This document shows positions 6,148 through 21,171 of a stretch of 31,330 nucleotides of DNA, piece after piece. The DNA lies in assembly GCA_043748395.1 (NCBI GenBank), contig JAYTNH010000120.1, forward strand, positions 1-31,330. Reading direction: 5' to 3'. The DNA comes from Ilumatobacteraceae bacterium. GTDB taxonomy: Bacteria; Actinomycetota; Acidimicrobiia; Acidimicrobiales; Ilumatobacteraceae. Under the pieces are notes generated by a model, which searched no databases, had not been told where the DNA came from, and saw only the letters and a program-made list of their open reading frames with translations. Position 1 is the first letter of the stretch. The number at the start of each line of letters is the position of its first letter. The position numbers and the translations under genes were made by a program.

Positions 6148-7893
6148 TCAGAGGTACTGACCGGTTGCGACACGCTCGATCGAGCGACCGCCTTCGCGTT
6201 CTTGTTCGATCTTGCCCTTCACCAACGTGCGGATGAACACGATTCGCTCACCCTTCTTGCCACTGATCTTCGCCCAGTCGTCCGGGTTCGTGGTGTTGGG
6301 CAGGTCTTCGTGCTCTTTGTACTCCTGCTTGATGCTGTCGAGCAGATCGGTGGTGCACACGCCTCGGGCACCGCCGGCAATGACCCGCTTGATCGCCAAC
6401 TTTTTGGCACGGCGAACGATGTTCTCGATCATGGCGCCCGACGCAAAGTCTTTGTAGTACAAGATCTCCTTGTCACCGTTCTGGTATGTGACTTCGAGGA
6501 ACTGATTGGCCTCGTCGGCGCGATACATCAGCTCGACGGTGGTGGCGATCATGTCGTCGATGCGCTCGTCTGCAGCGATGGGAATCTCGTCGGTGAGGTA
6601 CCGGGCAAAGATCTGCCGCGCCGCCTGCTCGCCAGGGCGTTCGATCTTGATCTTCACGTCGAGTCGGCCGGGTCGCAAGATTGCGGGATCGATGAGGTCT
6701 TCGCGGTTCGTGGCGCCGATGACAATGACGTTGGTGAGTCCCTCGACACCGTCGATCTCGACCAGCAACTGAGGCACGATGGTGCTCTCCATGTCACTGG
6801 AGATACCCGAGCCGCGGGTGCGGAACATCGAGTCCATCTCGTCGAAGAACACGATGACCGGCCAGCCTTCCTCGCTCTTCTCGCGGGCCCGCTGGAACAC
6901 GAGCCTGATCTGCCGCTCGGTCTCGCCGACGTACTTGTTGAGCAGTTCGGGACCCTTGATGTTGATGAAGTAGCTGCGACCCTTCTCGCCACCCGTCTTT
7001 TCGGCCACCTTCTTCGCCAGCGAGTTGGCAACCGCCTTGGCGATCAGCGTCTTGCCGCAACCCGGCGGCCCGTACAACAAGATGCCCTTCGGGGCGGGCA
7101 GTTGATGTTCGGCGAAAAGGTCGCGGTGCAAGAACGGCAATTCGACGGCATCGGCGATCTGCTCGATCTGCACGTCGAGCCCACCGATGTCGGAGTAGCT
7201 GATGTCGGGTACTTCTTCGAGCAGCAGGTCTTCCACCTCGGGACGCGGCAGCTTCTCGAGCAACATGCTGGTTCGCGGGTCGAAGCGCATGGAGTCGCCA
7301 CTGCGCAGATGCACACCGCGCAAGGCGTCGGCGAGCTCGCATATGCGTTCCTCGTCGGCGCGGCCCACCACGAGCGCGCGCACGCCGTCGTCGAGCAACT
7401 CTTTGATGGTGACCACTTCGCCGGTGATCTCGGGGCGACGCGCCTCGACCACGTTGAGGCTGTCGTTGAGCACGACCTCGGCGCCACGGGCGAGCGAGTC
7501 GTGGTCGATGTCGGGGTGCAGGTTGACGCGCATCTTGCGGCCGCTGCTGAGCACATCGACGGTTCCGTCGTCGTTCTTGCCGACGATCACCCCATAGGCC
7601 GACGGCGGTTGTGAGAGCTTGTCGACTTCGTCGCGTAGTGCGGCGATGTGCTCGCGGGCCTCGCGCAGGGTGTAGCTGAGCTTCTCGTTCTGCGAAACGG
7701 CCTGGGCGAGCTGACCCTTCGTCTCGAGGAGGCGTTCTTCGAGGGCGCGTTGGCGCTTGGGTGCGTCGGTGAGGCGGTGACGGAGGTTGGCGATCTCGTC
7801 TTCGAGGATCACCAACTGCGCCTGCGCTACCGCGAACGCGACATCGTCGTCGAGGTCGTCGGGCTGATCGCCGGTCGGACGTTCATCGGCCAT
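6148..7893 (-). CDS. arc: Proteasome ATPase ARC/Mpa
   Basis: N-terminal coiled coil, OB domains, Walker A GPPGCGKT, Walker B FFDEMD, RPGRLD, C-terminal GQYL. Confidence 0.98.
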
Positions 7894-7900
7894 ACGGGCG

Positions 7901-7906
7901 AAGCTA
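7901..7906 (-). promoter_or_regulatory. -10 box TAGCTT, leaderless arc promoter
   Basis: TANNNT 7 nt before ATG 7893; no SD. Confidence 0.65.
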
Positions 7907-7962
7907 CACGACCTGGGTCGTCAGCGACGTGAGTCTTGACACATGCGCGCGGATGAGTGCCT

Positions 7963-7977
7963 GCTCACCGAGTGAGC
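7963..7977. promoter_or_regulatory. Palindrome GCTCAC-N3-GTGAGC, candidate operator
   Basis: Perfect 6-bp inverted repeat ending 4 nt upstream of TATGAT in the divergent arc/ferredoxin spacer. Confidence 0.4.
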
Positions 7978-7981
7978 CCTG

Positions 7982-8019
7982 TATGATCGGCCAGGTCTGA
8001 CCCTTTCAGTTATAGGAGA
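7982..8019 (+). promoter_or_regulatory. Ferredoxin promoter -10 (TATGAT 7982-7987) and SD (AGGAGA 8014-8019)
   Basis: Near-consensus -10; SD 9 nt before ATG 8029. Confidence 0.6.
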
Positions 8020-8028
8020 CAACATCAC

Positions 8029-8274
8029 ATGAAGGTCTGGATTGACCAGGATCTATGCACCGGCGACGGACTCTGCGAAGAGATCGCCCCCGATGTCTTC
8101 ACACTGCTCGACGATGGCTTGGCCTACGTCGTTGAAGGCGACAAGGTTTTCGCGACCGCCAAGGGCAATGCCCAAGGCGCAGAGGGCATGGCCGAGATCC
8201 CCGATGGCCAGCTCGATGGCGTCATCGAGAGCGCTGAAGAGTGCCCCGGTGAGTGCATCTTCATCGAGCCCTAG
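8029..8274 (+). CDS. Single-cluster ferredoxin (3Fe-4S/4Fe-4S, CxxDxxC...CP)
   Basis: MKVWIDQDLCTGDGLCEEIAPDVF ... ECPGECI; strong SD. Confidence 0.93.
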   Translation: MKVWIDQDLCTGDGLCEEIAPDVFTLLDDGLAYVVEGDKVFATAKGNAQGAEGMAEIPDGQLDGVIESAEECPGECIFIEP

Positions 8275-8298
8275 CCAAACCCTTACATATTTCGAACG

Positions 8299-8324
8299 AC
8301 GAGGCGGCCGCAAGGTCGCCTCGT
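8299..8324. terminator. GNRA-capped hairpin, probable terminator after the ferredoxin (possibly bidirectional)
   Basis: ACGAGGCGGCC-GCAA-GGTCGCCTCGT: 11-bp stem with one G-U pair, 24 nt after the stop. No clear U-tract. Confidence 0.6.
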
Positions 8325-8405
8325 TCCGCGTTCACACACCCTCGGCCAGACAGCCCGCAGGCACCGCGCCGGCACTCTGCCGGCATCGAGCTGGTCTGTT
8401 CGCGG

Positions 8406-8458
8406 GTTTGTGTGACCACACAAACGATCCGGGCGAGTTCGTGCGCTCAACACAAACG
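8406..8458. repeat. 9-bp perfect inverted repeat plus a direct copy of one arm
   Basis: GTTTGTGTG-AC-CACACAAAC at 8406-8425; ACACAAACG at 8418-8426 and again at 8450-8458. Confidence 0.85.
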
Positions 8459-8493
8459 CTGCTCGGCTCGACGTCCGTAGGTCCAGACCGCGT

Positions 8494-9264
8494 TCAGCCC
8501 AAGAAGCGCGACACCGTGAGAAAGCCGGTGTGGGCCACCATGCGGTGGTCGGGCCGCACTGCTTGGCCCTCGACGTACCAGCCGCGGTGCAGCACCTCGA
8601 TGGTGCGCGTACCGTTCCACGACTTGTTGGCCAGCACATTGCGCAACTGCGACACCTGCGTGATCGACGGGTTGTAGGCCACGAAGATGCCGCCAGGACG
8701 CAACGCCTCGAGCGCGTGCGGCACGACCTTCCACGGCTCGGGAAGATCGAGAACCACGCGATCTACGTCGCGGGCATCGATTCCCTCGTAACAGTCGCGC
8801 AGTTCGGTGTGGTAGCGCTCGAGCGCTTCGTCACCGAGGAAGCTGCGCACGTTGATTCGAGCGCGATTCAGGAAGTCTTCGCGTAACTCGTAGCCGATGA
8901 TGGTTGCACCCCAGCGCAGCATGGTCATGCTGAGTGCACCAGACCCGATGCCACTCTCGAAGACGGTGACCCCCGGGCCGATGTCGGCCAACATGCAGAT
9001 GGGTGCAAGGTCTTTGGGGTAGATGACCTGAGCACCACGTGGCATCTCGAGTACGAAGTCTTCGAGGGTGGGCCGTAGCGCCGTGTAGTTGGCACCCTTG
9101 GTGCTCTTCACCACCACGCCTTCGGGCTGGCCTACCAGTTCAGCATGTGTGAACAGGCCGGCGTGCGTGTGGAACTCGGCGTCCTGCACGAGTGTGATCA
9201 GGTAGCGCCGTTGCTTCGAATCGAGGAGCAACACCTTGTCGCCGTAGTCGAATGGACGATTCAT
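8494..9264 (-). CDS. trmI: tRNA (adenine58-N1)-methyltransferase TrmI (Gcd14 family)
   Basis: RPTLEDFVLEMPRGAQVIYPKD, ESGIGSGALS, LDLPEPW, VRPDHRMVAHTGFL. Start ATG 9264 from the ATGA overlap with the ttuA stop. Confidence 0.95.
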   Translation of the reverse strand: MNRPFDYGDKVLLLDSKQRRYLITLVQDAEFHTHAGLFTHAELVGQPEGVVVKSTKGANYTALRPTLEDFVLEMPRGAQVIYPKDLAPICMLADIGPGVTVFESGIGSGALSMTMLRWGATIIGYELREDFLNRARINVRSFLGDEALERYHTELRDCYEGIDARDVDRVVLDLPEPWKVVPHALEALRPGGIFVAYNPSITQVSQLRNVLANKSWNGTRTIEVLHRGWYVEGQAVRPDHRMVAHTGFLTVSRFLG

Positions 9265-10229
9265 TTCTTGCCCCTGCCCTTGCTGAGCACCAGTTCGACA
9301 GGAACCGGGGCATGTTGACTCGCCTTTTCTTGCAGACGACAAAAAGCGCACACGTCGCCGGTCGTTGGCGCTCCACAGCTCGCACATTGGTTCAGGCCAT
9401 CGATTGCCGCCGCCGAATGGCCCACCAGAAGCGGTGCCATGTTCTCGATGAAGTTGAGGTAGAACGCCGCCTTGCTACCCGGCGATTCGGTTTCGATGAC
9501 GTTGAGGGCCGACTTGTAGGCCAGGTGTTTGTTGCCGAGTGCGATGGGACACTCCTCGACCTGATAGTCGATGCCGCGCACGATGCACCATGCCGCCATC
9601 TCGCGCTCGCTGAGCCGCACGAGTGGCTTCACTTTCTTCGGGAATCCGTCGCGCGCCGGAAGCACCGGCAGTTGTCGAGCGAGGTAGTCGATGTCCCACC
9701 GCAGCGTGTTGCCGAGCAGCACCGCTGCCTCGTCGTCGAGGTTGTGGCCGGTGACCAGCACGGTGTAGCCGCCATCGAGCGCTGCCTTGTCGAACAGGTG
9801 GCGTTTGCTGAGGCCGCACGCCGAGCACGGCACACGACGGGTGGCCTTCGCCGCGGTTGGTATGTCGTAGCCGTACTCGTCGCGTAGCGAGACCTCGATG
9901 AGCTTGAGCCCCCGTTCGGCCGCAAATGCACGCGCATACTCGCCGGAGATGTCGCTGTAGTCGCCAATGCCGAGCCCTACGTACAGTCCGTCAGCCTTGT
10001 ACCCGAGCTCGCTCAACAGGTCCCACACAGCCAGGCTGTCCTTGCCGCCAGACACCGCCACCAAGATGCGATCGTCCTTGGCGAGCATGTCGAAGTGCTC
10101 GATGGCTTTGGTCACCTGCCGACGGCACAATTCGATGAAGTGTTCGGCACAGAAGTTGGCGTTGTGGCGCGGCAAGTCGATGATGGCCGGCCCGCGACAC
10201 GTGCGACACTTCGAACCCACCGCAACCAT
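9261..10229 (-). CDS. ttuA: tRNA 2-thiolation enzyme TtuA (TtuA/Ncs6 family, Fe-S PP-loop)
   Basis: N-terminal Zn finger CRTC..CAEH, PP-loop AVSGGKDS, PCSACGLSKR, TGHNLDDEA, EECP, C-terminal CASCGAPTTGDVCAFCR. This motif layout matches Thermus TtuA as I recall it, rather than TtcA. Confidence 0.88.
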   Translation of the reverse strand: MVAVGSKCRTCRGPAIIDLPRHNANFCAEHFIELCRRQVTKAIEHFDMLAKDDRILVAVSGGKDSLAVWDLLSELGYKADGLYVGLGIGDYSDISGEYARAFAAERGLKLIEVSLRDEYGYDIPTAAKATRRVPCSACGLSKRHLFDKAALDGGYTVLVTGHNLDDEAAVLLGNTLRWDIDYLARQLPVLPARDGFPKKVKPLVRLSEREMAAWCIVRGIDYQVEECPIALGNKHLAYKSALNVIETESPGSKAAFYLNFIENMAPLLVGHSAAAIDGLNQCASCGAPTTGDVCAFCRLQEKASQHAPVPVELVLSKGRGKK

Positions 10230-10426
10230 CAGCTGCCACCGGAGATGACAGGTCTGATCTCCACCACGTCGTCGTCGGTCAGCTCTGCGTCGCCGGGCAC
10301 CAAGGTGCCGTTGCGAATGACCAAGTGCGCTTCACGGCTGAGATCGAGGCTGTCGAGCAAAGCATGCACGCGTCGAGGACCAGGAACATCGATCTCGCGT
10401 CGTGGATTGCGGAGCAGCACCTTCAT
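10229..10426 (-). CDS. ttuB: Ubiquitin-fold sulfur carrier TtuB (ThiS/MoaD family), 65 aa, ending ISGG-S
   Basis: MKVLLRNPRREIDVPG...VVEIRPVISGGS; TGATG overlap with the ttuA start. Start at ATG 10426, not the ORF-track start 10618. Confidence 0.88.
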   Translation of the reverse strand: MKVLLRNPRREIDVPGPRRVHALLDSLDLSREAHLVIRNGTLVPGDAELTDDDVVEIRPVISGGS

Positions 10427-10441
10427 CGGCACAGTGTGCCG
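10427..10441. promoter_or_regulatory. Palindrome CGGCACA-G-TGTGCCG overlapping the putative leaderless -10 (CACACT, 10433-10438, minus strand) of ttuB
   Basis: Perfect 7-bp inverted repeat abutting the ttuB ATG. Confidence 0.5.
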
Positions 10442-10466
10442 GATGCCGCTGCGAATGAGTCGCGCG

Positions 10467-10721
10467 TCAGCGCGCCGCCGACCGACGTTGTTTGCGGGTG
10501 GGTGCGGCGATGGCCTCGATGCGCACGAACTGCCCGGGCTTGAGCTCCTCGATCGACAGCACTTCTTCGGAGCGACCCAACAGTTTGCGTGCAACGCGGG
10601 GAGCCCACAACACTGCACCGACTGCGAGCCAACCGCGTCGGCCCCCGAACACGCCTTGGTGTAGCGCGTTGCGGCGCAGCAGCGCCATCGGAGAGAACAG
10701 ACTCGACGTACGGCGCGCCAC
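10467..10721 (-). CDS. Small basic hypothetical protein with one hydrophobic segment
   Basis: 84 aa; GTG start 3 nt after the upstream stop; fills the gap in the operon. No family recognised. Confidence 0.65.
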   Translation of the reverse strand: MARRTSSLFSPMALLRRNALHQGVFGGRRGWLAVGAVLWAPRVARKLLGRSEEVLSIEELKPGQFVRIEAIAAPTRKQRRSAAR

Positions 10722-10724
10722 GCG

Positions 10725-10931
10725 TCAGACCCGACGGATCTCGACCAGCGTGGTCTTCTTCTTGCCGCTGCGCTTACCGAGGAAGAAGAACAACAGCAAG
10801 ATCACGACGCCGCCGACCGCAGCGATCGCCATGAGCGTTTGCTTCTTGTCGTCGACCTTGCCCTGAACGTCGTCCTGCAAGGCGCGAAACTTGGCCTCGA
10901 GGTCGTCACGTGTGATGCGTGGTTGAGCCAT
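10725..10931 (-). CDS. Small coiled-coil, tail-anchored membrane protein (DUF3618-like)
   Basis: MAQPRITRDDLEAKFRALQDDVQ... then TM AIAAVGGVVILLLFFFLG and basic tail; TGATG overlap with the holin-like gene. Confidence 0.7.
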   Translation of the reverse strand: MAQPRITRDDLEAKFRALQDDVQGKVDDKKQTLMAIAAVGGVVILLLFFFLGKRSGKKKTTLVEIRRV

Positions 10932-11290
10932 CAGCGCTTCTCCTTCTGCAACGATTTCTTTCCGATACGTGATGCCGCAATGCCGGCGACGACAAGGCTG
11001 AAGACCAGCGCGATGAGGTACGGCACGAGCGACATCCAGCGCCCATGGAACGTCGGTGCATACTCGGTTTGCACCAACCGCAGCACCCCGAGCACCAAGA
11101 ATGCTGTTGCCAGCCCGATGAGCAGCGCTCCGGCGACGCCGAACCCAATCCAGCGGCCAGCACCCTTGAGTGGCCCGAGCGTCTCTTGACGCGCGTACTG
11201 CTTGACGAGGTCGACGACCTGAGCCACCTGACCGGCGGGTTCGGACTTCTTGTCTCGCTGGGTTTCGAGCTTCGCGTCTGACTTGGCCAC
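10931..11290 (-). CDS. Actinobacterial holin-like (Holin-X/DUF1469-type) membrane protein
   Basis: VVDLVKQYARQETLGPLK..G followed by two TM helices and a basic C-terminus. Confidence 0.75.
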   Translation of the reverse strand: MAKSDAKLETQRDKKSEPAGQVAQVVDLVKQYARQETLGPLKGAGRWIGFGVAGALLIGLATAFLVLGVLRLVQTEYAPTFHGRWMSLVPYLIALVFSLVVAGIAASRIGKKSLQKEKR

Positions 11291-11342
11291 GCACTAGTAC
11301 TACCACGCGATCTCCCCAACGACCTACTGGCTGTCGGTAGGT

Positions 11343-11972
11343 TTACGACCGGAGGCGGAACTGGAGCATGGGTTCGACGTCGTCGAGCATCGCCCCGAGC
11401 GCCTCGAGCCTGGCGCTGGCCGTTGGTGCGCAGAGCAACTGGTACCCGTCGGCTGGGCCCAACGGTGCCAACGCGGCCAGTTGGTAACTGGCGAGAATGG
11501 GGTCGTCACTGAGTTCGTCGGTGCTCAGCCGCTGTGGGTCTCCGAGTTCGAGCGCCAGTGCCGATGCACGCCGCACCCGCTGGGCGATCGATCGAATCAA
11601 TTCGGCGCTGCTCAGGGCATCGTTGGCATTGTCGGCGACGTCGGGCCACTCGGTCACTTCGGCGAGCGGGTAGGGAGCATCGGGTAGCCACGCATCGACG
11701 CGAATGCGGTGAGTACCGACTGCAAGAACGGCGAACTGGCCCGCCTCGAGTTCGGCGACCTTCACGATTCGTGCCGCTACCCCGACACCGAGTCGCTGGT
11801 CGCCGCCGCCGACCTCGCGGCCGCGCTCGATGAGCACCACACCGAACTCGTGTGGTTCGGTCGCCATGCAATGTCGAACCAACGCCTGGTACCTGGGCTC
11901 GAACACATGCAGCGGAAGCACTCCCCCAGGCAGCAACACGCTGCCGAGCGGGAACATCGGCATGACAACCAT
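11343..11972 (-). CDS. Stand-alone Lon peptidase N-terminal (substrate-binding) domain protein
   Basis: MPMFPLGSVLLPGGVLPLHVFEPRY, FGVVLIERGREVGG; no AAA+ or protease domain; TGATG overlap with dacB. Confidence 0.88.
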   Translation of the reverse strand: MVVMPMFPLGSVLLPGGVLPLHVFEPRYQALVRHCMATEPHEFGVVLIERGREVGGGDQRLGVGVAARIVKVAELEAGQFAVLAVGTHRIRVDAWLPDAPYPLAEVTEWPDVADNANDALSSAELIRSIAQRVRRASALALELGDPQRLSTDELSDDPILASYQLAALAPLGPADGYQLLCAPTASARLEALGAMLDDVEPMLQFRLRS

Positions 11973-13423
11973 CAGCGCGGCGCGAGCACTTCTACGGTGG
12001 GTCCGCTCGGGTAGGCCCCGATCACCTTCGCGAACAGGTCCCAGATGGGCCGGTAGGCCACTTGCTCGGCGATTTGCGGCCCATTGAGCAGCATCGAGAA
12101 CTCGATCTCGCCACCGCCTTCGAGTGACACGTATCCGCTCAGTGTCTTGACTGCCGGCTTGCCGCCGATCCCGTCGTCGTAGTTGTACAACGTGCCGGTC
12201 TTGGCGCGTAGACGACCGGCCAGCTCCGTGTCGCCGAATGCGTCAGACAGCGTGCCACCGGGTGCTCCGCCGATGGGCAGACCCACACCAATCGAGTCGC
12301 CCACCGAACCCCGAACGAGCAACGCGAGGAACGCTGCGCACGTCGCGCGGTTCTCGTCGCTCAGACCCGAGCCGTCGACCAGCACCACGCCGTCGAGCGG
12401 AATGCCCCAGGTGGTGAGGCGATCAGTGACCACCGCAAGCCCGGCTTCGCGGGTGCCCCCAGCGCCCGCGTTCAGCCCGATCTCCTTGAGCACCATCTCG
12501 GCCGTGTTGTTGTCGCTGGTGGTGAGCATCTCGGCAAGCACGGCGGGCAGCGCCTCGGACTGCACACTGGAAATCGTGACAGTGGACGGAGCCGTTCCGG
12601 ACGCCGGCGCTCCCGCCACCGGTACGCCACGTTCGCGCAACAGATCGGTGAGTACTTGCGCGGCACCTTGCACCGGATCGTTCGACGACTTGTCGACCTG
12701 TTCGCGCGAGTCGTTCACGAGCAAGGCCGACACTGGGCCCCCTTCGATGAAACGTACGTCGGCTGTCCATGTGGGCGCGTACCACTCGTCGTCGTACCGC
12801 GACGCGTCGCCCACTACCCGACCGGTCACATTCGTGACTCCGGCAGCCACGACTGCTTCGGCCAGTGCCTCGATGGAGGTGACGTTGAAGGGCGGGTACT
12901 TCTGGTTCGGGCCCTTCCACCATGTGCTGCTGAGCAGCGGGTCGCCACCTCCGATGAGGTACAGGTCGCCATTCACCACTCCGTCGGTGCCGATGGTGCC
13001 AGCCACCGTGGAGGTGAAACGAAAGTCGGCACCGAGCACATCGAGAGCGACAGCGGCGGTGATGAGCTTGACGTTGCTTGCCGGGCGCAGCGATGCGGTG
13101 TCGTTCACCACGCCGACCGGCTGGCCGTCGACCGCCACCGAGAGACACGAAGTTGCATCGATCTGTGCGAGCAGCGGCTGCAGATCGGTGATGAACGAGT
13201 CGGCGTTCACCACGCGCGACAACGTCGTCGGAGCTCGCCGAACCGACAGCAGCGGCGTGTTCAGCGGATTGGGCACCGCGACCGGTGCCGACGAATCGGT
13301 GACAACGATGACACCGTCGGCGGGAGCCTTGCCATCGGCAATGCGCCACAACGCTGCGAGGCCGAGCGCCGGCACCAACGCCACAATCACGAGCGCCGGC
13401 AACGGGTTGCGTCGTGTAACCAC
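11972..13423 (-). CDS. dacB: D-alanyl-D-alanine carboxypeptidase/endopeptidase (PBP4, peptidase S13)
   Basis: N-terminal TM anchor; SxxK (PASNVKL), SxN (SDN), DGSGLS, KTGT. Confidence 0.93.
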   Translation of the reverse strand: MVTRRNPLPALVIVALVPALGLAALWRIADGKAPADGVIVVTDSSAPVAVPNPLNTPLLSVRRAPTTLSRVVNADSFITDLQPLLAQIDATSCLSVAVDGQPVGVVNDTASLRPASNVKLITAAVALDVLGADFRFTSTVAGTIGTDGVVNGDLYLIGGGDPLLSSTWWKGPNQKYPPFNVTSIEALAEAVVAAGVTNVTGRVVGDASRYDDEWYAPTWTADVRFIEGGPVSALLVNDSREQVDKSSNDPVQGAAQVLTDLLRERGVPVAGAPASGTAPSTVTISSVQSEALPAVLAEMLTTSDNNTAEMVLKEIGLNAGAGGTREAGLAVVTDRLTTWGIPLDGVVLVDGSGLSDENRATCAAFLALLVRGSVGDSIGVGLPIGGAPGGTLSDAFGDTELAGRLRAKTGTLYNYDDGIGGKPAVKTLSGYVSLEGGGEIEFSMLLNGPQIAEQVAYRPIWDLFAKVIGAYPSGPTVEVLAPR

Positions 13424-19206: not shown

Positions 19207-21171
19207 GTGACCTTCGAGCTCAGCTCCACCCACGATCAGCAGGCAATCTCACTCATCCGCGGGTTTGCGATGGATGCTCCGCTGTATGCCAAAAGTGGCC
19301 ACCAGGGCACCGCCATGGCGCTGGCCCCGCTCGCCCACGTTCTGTACAGCCGGGTGATGCAGCACGACCCCACCGATCCCCATTGGCCCGACCGCGACCG
19401 GTTCATCCTGTCCAACGGCCACGCCTCGATCCTGCAGTACTCGCTGTTGTTCCTCTGCGGGTACGGCCTCGAACTCGATGACATCAAGGCCTTCCGCCAA
19501 TGGGAGTCGCTCACCCCCGGCCACCCCGAAGTCGGCCACACCACTGGGGTCGAGGTCACCACCGGCCCCCTCGGCCAAGGCTTCGCGAATGCCGTCGGCA
19601 TGGCTCTCGCCGAGCGCCGTTTGGGCGCGGCGTACGGCACCGACGTGATGCATCACACTACGTTCGTGCTTGCCGGCGACGGATGTTTCATGGAGGGCGT
19701 CAGCCACGAGGCCGCTTCGCTCGCCGGCCATTTAGGCCTGGGCAGTCTGGTGTGCGTCTACGACGACAACCACATCACCATCGACGGCGATACGGCTCTT
19801 GCCTACAGCGACAACGTGCCCGAACGCTTCGCGGCGTATGGGTGGCACGTCGAGCAATTGGGTGAGATCGCCGACGACCTCGATGCGCTCGAAGCCGCCC
19901 TGCGCCGCGCAGTCGCGGTCACCGACCGGCCCAGCCTGCTCGTGCTGCGCTCGCACATCGCGACACCCAGCCCCGACCTCACCGACCACCACGAGGCGCA
20001 CGGCAATCCGTTCACCGCCGAACAGGTGGCACGCACCAAGGCAGTGATGGGCATCCCTGACGAGCCCTACTGGGCACCCGACGAGCTCGTCCACGCCTAC
20101 CGCTCACATTGCAGTGAGCGGGGTCGCGCAGCACGCAACCAGTGGACCGAACGGTTCGAGTCGGCCGCGATCGATCGGCGGGCTTGGGATGCGGCTTGGG
20201 CAGGCACCGGCGTCGAAGGCTGGAAGGCCGACCTCCCCACATTCGCACTCGGCGAAAAGATCGCCACCCGCGTCGCCATCGAGAAGGCCTTCAATGCGTC
20301 GCTCGACTCTGTACCCGGCTTGGTAGCAGGTGCCGCCGACCTCACCGGTAACACCGGCACCAAGTTGGCCGGCCAGCTGCCACAATCGGCTGCGCAGCGC
20401 GATGGCCGCCAGGTGTACTTCGGAGTTCGCGAGCACGCGATGGGCTCGATCATGGTGGGTATGGCCCTGCACGGGGGTGTGCTGCCTGCTGGCGGAACGT
20501 TCTTCGTCTTCCTCGACTACATGCGGCCGCCGGTGCGTTTGGCCACGATCAGTCACGCCAAGGTGGTGTTCGTGTTCACCCACGACTCGGTCGGTGTCGG
20601 AGAAGACGGCCCGACCCACCAGCCCGTCGAGCACTTGGCAACCTTGCGTGCCATCCCCGGCCTGCAGGTCATCCGGCCAGCCGATGCCAACGAAACGGTG
20701 GCCGCGTGGGTGGCTGCGGTCGAACACGATGGCCCGACTGCGCTGGTCCTCAGCCGCCAGGCCATCACGGTGTGCACCGACGGTTCTGCGGTGGCCACGG
20801 GGGCCGCTGTCGTCCGCTCCACCGCATCGCCCCGAATCATCCTCGTGGGCACCGGCAGCGAGGTCGAGGTATGTGTGGCCGCTGCCGACCTGTTGGCCCA
20901 ATCGGGCGTGGCCGCCAATGTGGTGAGCCTTCCCTCGTGGGACCGCTTCGCAGCGCAGTCCGCAACCTTTCGGTCCTCGGTCTTCCCTGATGACGTGCCC
21001 GTGTTGTCGGTCGAGGCCGGCGTCACGTTCGGTTGGGAACGCTACGCCGATGCATCGGTGGGCATCGATCGATTTGGTGCCAGCGCGCCCGGTGCGCTGG
21101 TGCTCGAACGCCTCGGCATCAGCCCAGCAAATGTCGCTGCACGTGCAGTCGAACTCGTCGAGAAGGGATGA
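19207..21171 (+). CDS. tkt: Transketolase
   Basis: SGH, DRFILSNGHAS, TPGHPE, TTGPLGQG, ThDP motif GDG..MEGVSHE...DDN, FGVREHAM, GEDGPTHQP. Confidence 0.97.
   Translation: MTFELSSTHDQQAISLIRGFAMDAPLYAKSGHQGTAMALAPLAHVLYSRVMQHDPTDPHWPDRDRFILSNGHASILQYSLLFLCGYGLELDDIKAFRQWESLTPGHPEVGHTTGVEVTTGPLGQGFANAVGMALAERRLGAAYGTDVMHHTTFVLAGDGCFMEGVSHEAASLAGHLGLGSLVCVYDDNHITIDGDTALAYSDNVPERFAAYGWHVEQLGEIADDLDALEAALRRAVAVTDRPSLLVLRSHIATPSPDLTDHHEAHGNPFTAEQVARTKAVMGIPDEPYWAPDELVHAYRSHCSERGRAARNQWTERFESAAIDRRAWDAAWAGTGVEGWKADLPTFALGEKIATRVAIEKAFNASLDSVPGLVAGAADLTGNTGTKLAGQLPQSAAQRDGRQVYFGVREHAMGSIMVGMALHGGVLPAGGTFFVFLDYMRPPVRLATISHAKVVFVFTHDSVGVGEDGPTHQPVEHLATLRAIPGLQVIRPADANETVAAWVAAVEHDGPTALVLSRQAITVCTDGSAVATGAAVVRSTASPRIILVGTGSEVEVCVAAADLLAQSGVAANVVSLPSWDRFAAQSATFRSSVFPDDVPVLSVEAGVTFGWERYADASVGIDRFGASAPGALVLERLGISPANVAARAVELVEKG

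Follow-up and report, generated by a model that had tools for sequence, protein, structure and literature searches.

The DNA analysed (the window: 31,330 nucleotides (nt), positions 1 to 31,330 of contig JAYTNH010000120.1, forward strand, GenBank assembly GCA_043748395.1) belongs to an Ilumatobacteraceae metagenome-assembled genome (MAG) of 2.56 megabases (Mb), which is split into 541 contigs and 79% complete; close homologues of its TtuA protein carry the same family name. The locus under study is a block of three genes on the minus strand (8494-10426): a ttuB-like sulfur carrier gene (10426..10229, an open reading frame (ORF) of 65 amino acids (aa)), the tRNA thiolation gene ttuA (10229..9261, 322 aa) and the tRNA methyltransferase gene trmI (9264..8494, 256 aa). 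A sequence-only reading of the window had given exactly these coordinates and had proposed an operon that packages a tRNA modification writer with its prerequisite and that could yield 2-thiouridine at tRNA position 54 (s2U54) if the host were a mesophile without a U54 methylase. Judged from sequence, the block is probably a functional TtuB-TtuA-TrmI cassette that modifies the T-loop (elbow) of the tRNAs of a moderate-temperature Acidimicrobiia bacterium; the proposal was supported by the identity of TtuA and TrmI, the presence of MnmA, the lack of a detectable U54 methylase and a predicted growth optimum of ~23°C, as detailed below.

The three genes are tightly joined, and both gene overlaps described earlier were read directly from the minus strand: the ttuB stop and the ttuA start share 1 nt (TGATG, at 10229; junction letters GGC AGC TGATGG), and the ttuA stop and the trmI start share 4 nt (ATGA, 9261..9264; junction letters AAG AAATGAATC). 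Relatives from the class Acidimicrobiia have identical overlaps or gaps of 0-18 nt, many with a 0-3 nt gap or a -3 offset. Because the same junctions recur in relatives, the tight spacing is not a product of chance. A longer reading of trmI (297 aa, from 9387) overlaps ttuA; its homologues begin at the ATG at 9264.

The TtuA protein carries the Pfam domains TtuA_LIM_N (3e-10) and PP-loop, and was assigned to the TtuA subfamily by two sets of scores. With the NCBIfam models it obtained 261 bits for TtuA, 108 for NcsA and 59 for TtcA. In the Protein Data Bank (PDB), its best match was TtuA of Thermus thermophilus (299 bits, E 5e-88, residues 8-305), followed by TtuA of Pyrococcus horikoshii (243 bits) and Methanococcus NcsA (93 bits). 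By these bit scores the enzyme sides with TtuA, as had been suggested, and not with TtcA or NcsA. Some public annotations name close homologues 'tRNA-5-methyluridine54 2-sulfurtransferase'.

Residue conservation was assessed in an alignment of 23 TtuA sequences, reaching down to 33% identity. The ATP-binding PP-loop SGGKDS (TtuA residues 60-65; 10035..10052, minus strand) is invariant from S60 to D64 and nearly invariant at S65. The three iron-sulfur (Fe-S) cysteines C135, C138 and C227 (span 9549..9827, minus strand; codons 9827-9825, 9818-9816 and 9551-9549, respectively) are invariant and lie in the motifs C135-S-A-C138 and E-E-C227-P, which align with the CxxC and EECP motifs of Thermus TtuA, where the cluster is bound by Cys130, Cys133 and Cys222 (PMC7025502). 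The cysteines of the N-terminal zinc finger (C8, C11 and C27) and of the C-terminal one (C282, C285, C294 and C297) are invariant or nearly so. Thus both zinc fingers, the PP-loop and the three cluster-type cysteines (CSAC, ECP) noted in the sequence-only reading are all in place.

The third gene was likewise correctly named as that of the methyltransferase for 1-methyladenosine at tRNA position 58 (m1A58): TrmI carries the Pfam domains GCD14 (8e-26) and TrmI-like_N (1e-19), and its nearest solved relative is Mycobacterium tuberculosis Rv2118c (199 bits), with Thermus and Aquifex TrmI at 132-136 bits. The T-loop UUCRA (positions 54-58) was present in 17 of the 18 tRNA genes detected with ARAGORN. 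In Thermus, m1A58 accelerates TtuA, and the methylation and thiolation of U54 are independent of each other (PMC6418473). The first of these findings agrees with the translational coupling of ttuA to trmI seen here.

A genome search for mnmA found the gene adjoining a cysteine desulfurase gene, so that U34 thiolation is covered and TtuA is not needed for it. Together with orthology and the trmI linkage, this points to thiolation at tRNA position 54. An enzyme of this kind might instead thiolate U34 (as NcsA/Ctu1), C32 (as TtcA) or a non-tRNA RNA, its adjacency to trmI being historical. TtuA, NcsA and TtcA have a common fold and chemistry, and position specificity cannot be fixed with certainty from sequence, but the bit scores to characterised TtuA are threefold those to NcsA, and the ttuA-trmI coupling, preserved in over 100 loci, is seen again in other phyla; with U34 served by MnmA, a target other than U54 seems very improbable. 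The narrower reading as a U34 enzyme was rejected on the same three grounds: TtuA-type scores, presence of MnmA and conserved coupling.

The product of the first gene matched Pfam ThiS (4e-9, 37 bits, cut-off 22.5) and SAMP2 (2e-6), and is predicted to be a carrier of the ThiS/MoaD-type beta-grasp fold; in its PDB matches SAMP2 and Thermus TtuB, the C-terminal Gly-Gly aligns with G63-G64 of the carrier. Direct reading showed that a free C-terminal Gly-Gly is not encoded here: the protein ends ISGGS-stop, so that the Gly-Gly is masked by one residue (Gly63-Gly64-Ser65; 10232..10240, minus strand). Residues past the Gly-Gly were found in 98 of 109 Actinomycetota TtuB loci, whereas 13 of 14 clearly non-actinobacterial TtuB loci terminate at Gly-Gly, like Thermus TtuB. 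At the first position past the Gly-Gly, 60 loci have Ala and 23 have Ser. In-frame TtuB-TtuA fusions were also seen (18/126 loci, among them L055, L058, L060, L062, L064, L065, L107, L109-L111, L122, L125, L126 and L144), in which the Gly-Gly is followed by a linker of 2-7 residues and then by the TtuA zinc finger; these fusions are confined to the phylum-wide and named-genome sets (0/30 class loci). The tail and fusion counts are approximate, some genomes having possibly been entered by two routes. Since TtuB in Actinomycetota almost always has trailing residues or is fused to TtuA, a cut after the Gly-Gly is required, and the TtuB described here is probably a precursor that needs trimming before it can function.

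The candidate enzyme for this cut, as a guess, is the JAMM/Mec-like protease of the genome, which is encoded by a single gene (contig C321) directly upstream of a gene for a CysM-like pyridoxal phosphate (PLP) enzyme. JAMM genes were found in 146 of the 161 high-quality class genomes, in those with TtuA as well as in those without it, and this near-universal occurrence gives the protease no specific support as the TtuB peptidase.

For the TtuA-TtuB pair, a complex of TtuA with TtuB(1-64) was predicted with a score of 0.88 (best control 0.00), a value that 51 of 78 solved complexes attain, against 2 of 108 mismatched pairs; because a comparable complex has already been solved (PDB 5GHA), the model is to be read as likeness and not as binding. 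In the model, TtuB residues 58-64 contact TtuA residues 62-64, 165-166 and 224-227, i.e. the PP-loop and the Cys227 region.

The search for ttuC (the E1 activating enzyme) and ttuD (the rhodanese) found both functions in one protein: the genome has one ThiF-type E1, to which a rhodanese domain is fused. In this E1 (locus L003, genome G000, contig C228), the rhodanese domain lies N-terminal to ThiF, which is the reverse of the MoeZ/Uba4 order; its gene adjoins a Sir2-family gene, and the contig stops within the ORF. Three further ThiS-family genes and three strong desulfurase (Aminotran_5) matches were also found in the genome.

A U54 methylase was looked for with TrmFO and with the TrmA/RlmD family PF05958, and neither matched the host genome; TrmFO was also missing from all 201 class genomes (0/201, 161 of them high quality). 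The supposition that the host has no U54 methylase was thus upheld for the TrmFO and TrmA types, and without a detectable methylase the likely product is s2U54, beside m1A58, and not 5-methyl-2-thiouridine (m5s2U54). The same enzymes could nevertheless make the canonical m5s2U54 if the gene for the methyltransferase lay in the 21% of the genome that the MAG lacks, or if the enzyme were of an unrecognised family. This explanation draws on the incompleteness of the genome, on weak PF05958 matches in 30 of the 201 class genomes (8 of them TtuA-positive) and on the near-constant presence of 5-methyluridine (m5U54) in wild-type Thermus (PMC6418473). Against it stand the TrmFO result across the class and the empty PF05958 search of the host; moreover, PF05958 matches fall mostly in families that lack TtuA (f3, f23, f26 and f27), and this Pfam family includes rRNA methylases. 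We therefore regard m5s2U54 as an improbable product, though one to be kept in mind. Among the TtuA-lacking families, weak PF05958 matches were counted in 4/5 genomes of f3, 9/9 of f23 and 4/4 of f27. From this pattern, methylation and thiolation of U54 may be alternatives to each other in Acidimicrobiia, with the reservation that few independent lineages are involved and that PF05958 also holds the rRNA enzymes.

The host is predicted to be mesophilic, with all estimates in agreement. The proteome fraction of the amino acids I, V, Y, W, R, E and L (IVYWREL) is 0.382, which corresponds to an optimum of ~23°C by Zeldovich's relation; the charged-versus-polar (CvP) bias is 2.4, the mean G+C content of the tRNAs is 61.6% (65.5% for the genome), and the DNA was found in sediment and freshwater-sediment metagenome runs. 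The mesophilic host, which had been only a supposition, gained support from the temperature estimate, the tRNA G+C content and the metagenome runs; the estimate and the sediment origin also speak against a thermophile using the canonical pathway. Seven other TtuA-positive complete Actinomycetota genomes have predicted optima of 22-40°C (G003 was left out of this sample, having too few ORFs under the filter on G+C at third codon positions (GC3)).

The cassette is widespread. A TtuA match was present in 85 of the 161 high-quality class genomes (60 of 103 genera sampled) and, across the phylum, in 132 of 401 genomes (93 of 249 genera), a tally that includes G201, G245, G283 and G312, which are flagged as unpublished and from which none of the loci were taken. 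No match was found in several large Actinomycetota families or in the Corynebacterium glutamicum control. The order ttuB-ttuA-trmI was the same in 30/30 class loci and was kept in 23 of 25 loci of the phylum-wide sample, usually with arc directly after, and in all named actinobacterial loci. The named genomes with the block belong to Ilumatobacteraceae, Iamiaceae, Acidimicrobiales and Nitriliruptoria and come mostly from soil and sediment surveys; cultured carriers exist within the class Acidimicrobiia. The trmI-arc adjacency is conserved across Actinomycetota, and the model actinobacteria that keep only this pair appear to have lost the cassette.

Outside the phylum, TtuA proteins of 48-58% identity were found in Dehalococcoidia, Anaerolineae, Chloroflexia, Nitrospira, Rokubacteria, Binatia and others, and ttuA adjoins trmI in three other phyla (in Binatia L128, Nitrospirota L139, Polyangiaceae L135 and the 'delta proteobacterium' L148). 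In a FastTree phylogeny of 215 TtuA rows, which is unrooted, has many long branches and was built without named thermophile references, the label Actinomycetota-versus-other requires only 3 changes, which agrees with a largely vertical inheritance of TtuA within Actinomycetota. The cassette is an old phylum-wide trait that is not peculiar to the host genome.

Some further observations concern the same sample. Family f17 of the class comprises 47 genomes of ~1.1 Mb without TtuA and without JAMM, and the smaller genomes (~2 Mb) of the host's own family also lack TtuA. Two records titled 'Acidobacteriota' (L096) and 'Bifidobacterium sp.' (L079) contain a full ttuB-ttuA-trmI block of Acidimicrobiia type, with TtuA at 60-71% identity, and L096 also has the ferredoxin and arc genes described below; the taxon labels of these two MAGs look wrong.

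The cassette might also be an inactive relic of a thermophilic ancestor, given that all known cases of the modification are from thermophiles (PMC6313347). This reading was rejected: the catalytic residues are all invariant in the alignment, over 100 genomes of many families have intact reading frames with conserved overlaps, and TtuA is present in 93 of the 249 genera sampled from the phylum. Its probability is close to negligible.

Upstream of ttuB, the single putative promoter proposed for the block was not confirmed: a consensus scan of 7800-11400 returned no sigma-70-like site, and terminator-like sites in the same interval were in no excess over shuffles. A conserved same-strand ORF of 84 aa (10467..10721, minus strand) ends 41 nt before ttuB, so that the transcript of ttuB-ttuA-trmI may begin further upstream and the ORF may be co-transcribed. 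No RNA sequencing run covering the region was listed. It has no Pfam or NCBIfam match, and homologues stand at the same location in many Acidimicrobiia loci. More broadly, the minus strand of 10467-13423 encodes a penicillin-binding protein 4 (PBP4)-type carboxypeptidase, a Lon-N-domain protein, a holin-X-like membrane protein and the 84-aa ORF, followed by ttuB; in many Acidimicrobiia loci these genes, from the carboxypeptidase gene to ttuB, run in this order on a single strand. More than three genes may belong to the transcription unit.

Downstream of trmI, the order is an antisense ferredoxin gene, arc, a lipoprotein gene and dop/pafA (Pfam). The single-cluster 4Fe-4S ferredoxin between trmI and arc (8029..8274, plus strand; Pfam Fer4_15, 2e-17) has 63-92% identity at the same site in Acidimicrobiia, where few neighbouring genes are better conserved. 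Loci of other actinobacterial classes mostly show no ferredoxin at this site, trmI lying directly next to arc. The arc/mpa gene (6148..7893, minus strand; Pfam AAA and Prot_ATP_ID_OB) encodes the proteasomal AAA ATPase and heads the Pup-proteasome locus. Elsewhere in the window, no Rfam RNA family was found, and an ARAGORN call of a 93-nt 'tRNA-Ala(agc)' at 19454-19546, without a normal T-loop, is probably false and lies inside coding sequence.

The position of arc bears on a different role for the carrier, in which TtuB would chiefly be a ubiquitin-like protein modifier tied to the Pup-proteasome genes, with tRNA thiolation secondary. The cassette lies directly upstream of arc across the phylum, the masked Gly-Gly resembles ubiquitin precursors, archaeal SAMP2 is among the PDB matches of TtuB, and Thermus TtuB reportedly forms protein conjugates (Shigi 2012). 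On the other side, the trmI-arc adjacency is possibly plain inherited gene order, the translational coupling or fusion of TtuB to TtuA argues for a sulfur carrier, and the predicted complex would put the TtuB tail in the TtuA active site. A mainly protein-modifying TtuB therefore appears decidedly improbable beside its role in the T-loop cassette.

The following points weigh against the reading of the locus as a working s2U54 cassette of a mesophile. Position 54 is assigned solely from orthology and the trmI linkage. The complex score may owe its height to memory of the solved Thermus complex 5GHA. The missing U54 methylase is weak evidence when taken from the host genome alone, as the MAG is 79% complete, and an unrecognised U54 methylase is possible. 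The predicted optima (~23°C for the host, 22-40°C for the other genomes) were obtained with an empirical formula applied to crude ORF calls, without a thermophile control. In the literature, m5s2U54 is reported from thermophiles and not from mesophiles (PMC6313347). Finally, the 261 bits of the protein do not reach the cut-off of 450 bits of NCBIfam NF049949, the equivalog model for Pyrococcus-type TtuA. As only 1 of the 6 matching control genomes (Thermus among the six) exceeds it, the model covers less than the whole TtuA family, and a score below this cut-off was not taken to place the protein outside it.

Reviews list TtuA/TtuB among the thermophile adaptations that raise the tRNA melting temperature (PMC6313347, PMC7912444, PMC13602947). 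Within the literature searched, no paper connecting TtuA with Actinobacteria in this sense was found, and, by title and abstract, none of the seven papers since 2019 using the term s2U54 apparently reports it in a mesophilic bacterium.

For the s2U54 cassette, homology suggests the following course. TrmI would turn A58 into m1A58. The PP-loop of TtuA would adenylate C2 of U54, and the adenylate would be swapped for sulfur on the free iron of the TtuA [4Fe-4S] cluster. The sulfur donor would be the thiocarboxylated C-terminus of TtuB, its tail lying inside the TtuA active site as modelled in likeness to the Thermus complex. TtuB would be charged by the single rhodanese-fused ThiF-type E1, with a cysteine desulfurase giving the sulfur. 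Beforehand, a peptidase would have to expose the Gly-Gly of the GG-Ser precursor, a need that follows from the sequence; the JAMM/Mec-like protease is a guess for this step. The resulting s2U54, rather than m5s2U54, would pair with m1A58 and stiffen the elbow. Our best guess for its purpose in a mesophile is a general stabilisation of the elbow in a lineage without ribothymidine, possibly tuned via the supply of Fe-S clusters and sulfur.

About one third of the actinobacterial genera sampled have the pathway genes, which are intact, tightly coupled and conserved, and the predicted growth optima of their hosts are 22-40°C; the genes are also found in soil and sediment Chloroflexota and Nitrospirota. 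This gene evidence is at odds with the 'thermophile-specific' label of the TtuA/TtuB pathway. If sulfur is placed on U54, the modification has a role besides heat tolerance, many mesophiles have s2U54 instead of ribothymidine (T54), and the carrier needs a maturation cut that is unneeded in Thermus. A wider proposal is more speculative and on balance unlikely, although it is far from idle: in Actinomycetota, and probably among certain Chloroflexota and Nitrospirota, s2U54-m1A58 would be a routine, heat-unrelated elbow modification replacing ribothymidine; its synthesis would be gated by a ubiquitin-style cut of pro-TtuB (GG-Ala/Ser or fusion), making thiolation switchable, and TtuB might serve in addition as a protein tag, its gene lying alongside the Pup-proteasome locus.

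Masked sulfur carriers are known from the QbsE/QbsD and CysO-Mec+ systems, in which a JAMM protease trims the carrier past its Gly-Gly before adenylation by the E1. The present locus resembles them in the carrier tail past the Gly-Gly and in having one JAMM gene beside that of a CysM-like PLP enzyme; it differs in that the cassette has no linked protease here, the JAMM assignment being a guess.

With the archaeal NcsA-SAMP2 and eukaryotic Ctu1/Ncs6-Urm1 systems, the cassette has in common the superfamily, the chemistry of the PP-loop and the Fe-S cluster, and a thiocarboxylate donor of ubiquitin fold, but similarity to them is much lower (93-108 bits) and their target is U34, which MnmA serves here. 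Sulfolobus acidocaldarius has s2U54 without the 5-methyl group and possesses TtuA/TtuB with no TrmA, Pus10 or TrmY (PMC7912444). There, too, a TtuA/TtuB pair thiolates unmethylated U54 in a genome without a U54 methylase. Sulfolobus is, however, an archaeal hyperthermophile, for which neither a coupling to trmI nor a masked carrier has been reported.

The closest system is that of Thermus, which makes 2-thioribothymidine (s2T54) with TtuA, TtuB, TtuC (E1), TtuD (rhodanese), IscS/SufS, TrmFO and TrmI (PDB 5GHA, 5ZTB, 5B4E). The host matches it in its TtuA orthologue with the identical motif set, in a ThiS-fold carrier whose Gly-Gly is modelled in the TtuA active site, and in having an E1, a rhodanese domain, desulfurases and TrmI in its genome. 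It departs from Thermus in being a predicted mesophile, in the translational coupling of ttuB-ttuA to trmI, in the residue past the TtuB Gly-Gly (Thermus TtuB ends GG), in carrying rhodanese and E1 on one polypeptide and in the lack of a TrmFO match, which is why s2U54 is expected in place of m5s2U54. The sequence-only reading had offered the locus as the best candidate in the window for an undescribed system; this part did not stand, the components being orthologous to those of a described system and the cassette being phylum-wide. The cassette is a variant of the Thermus-type system, distinguished by the absence of a detected U54 methylase, a fused rhodanese-E1, a precursor carrier, coupling to trmI and a host predicted to be mesophilic.

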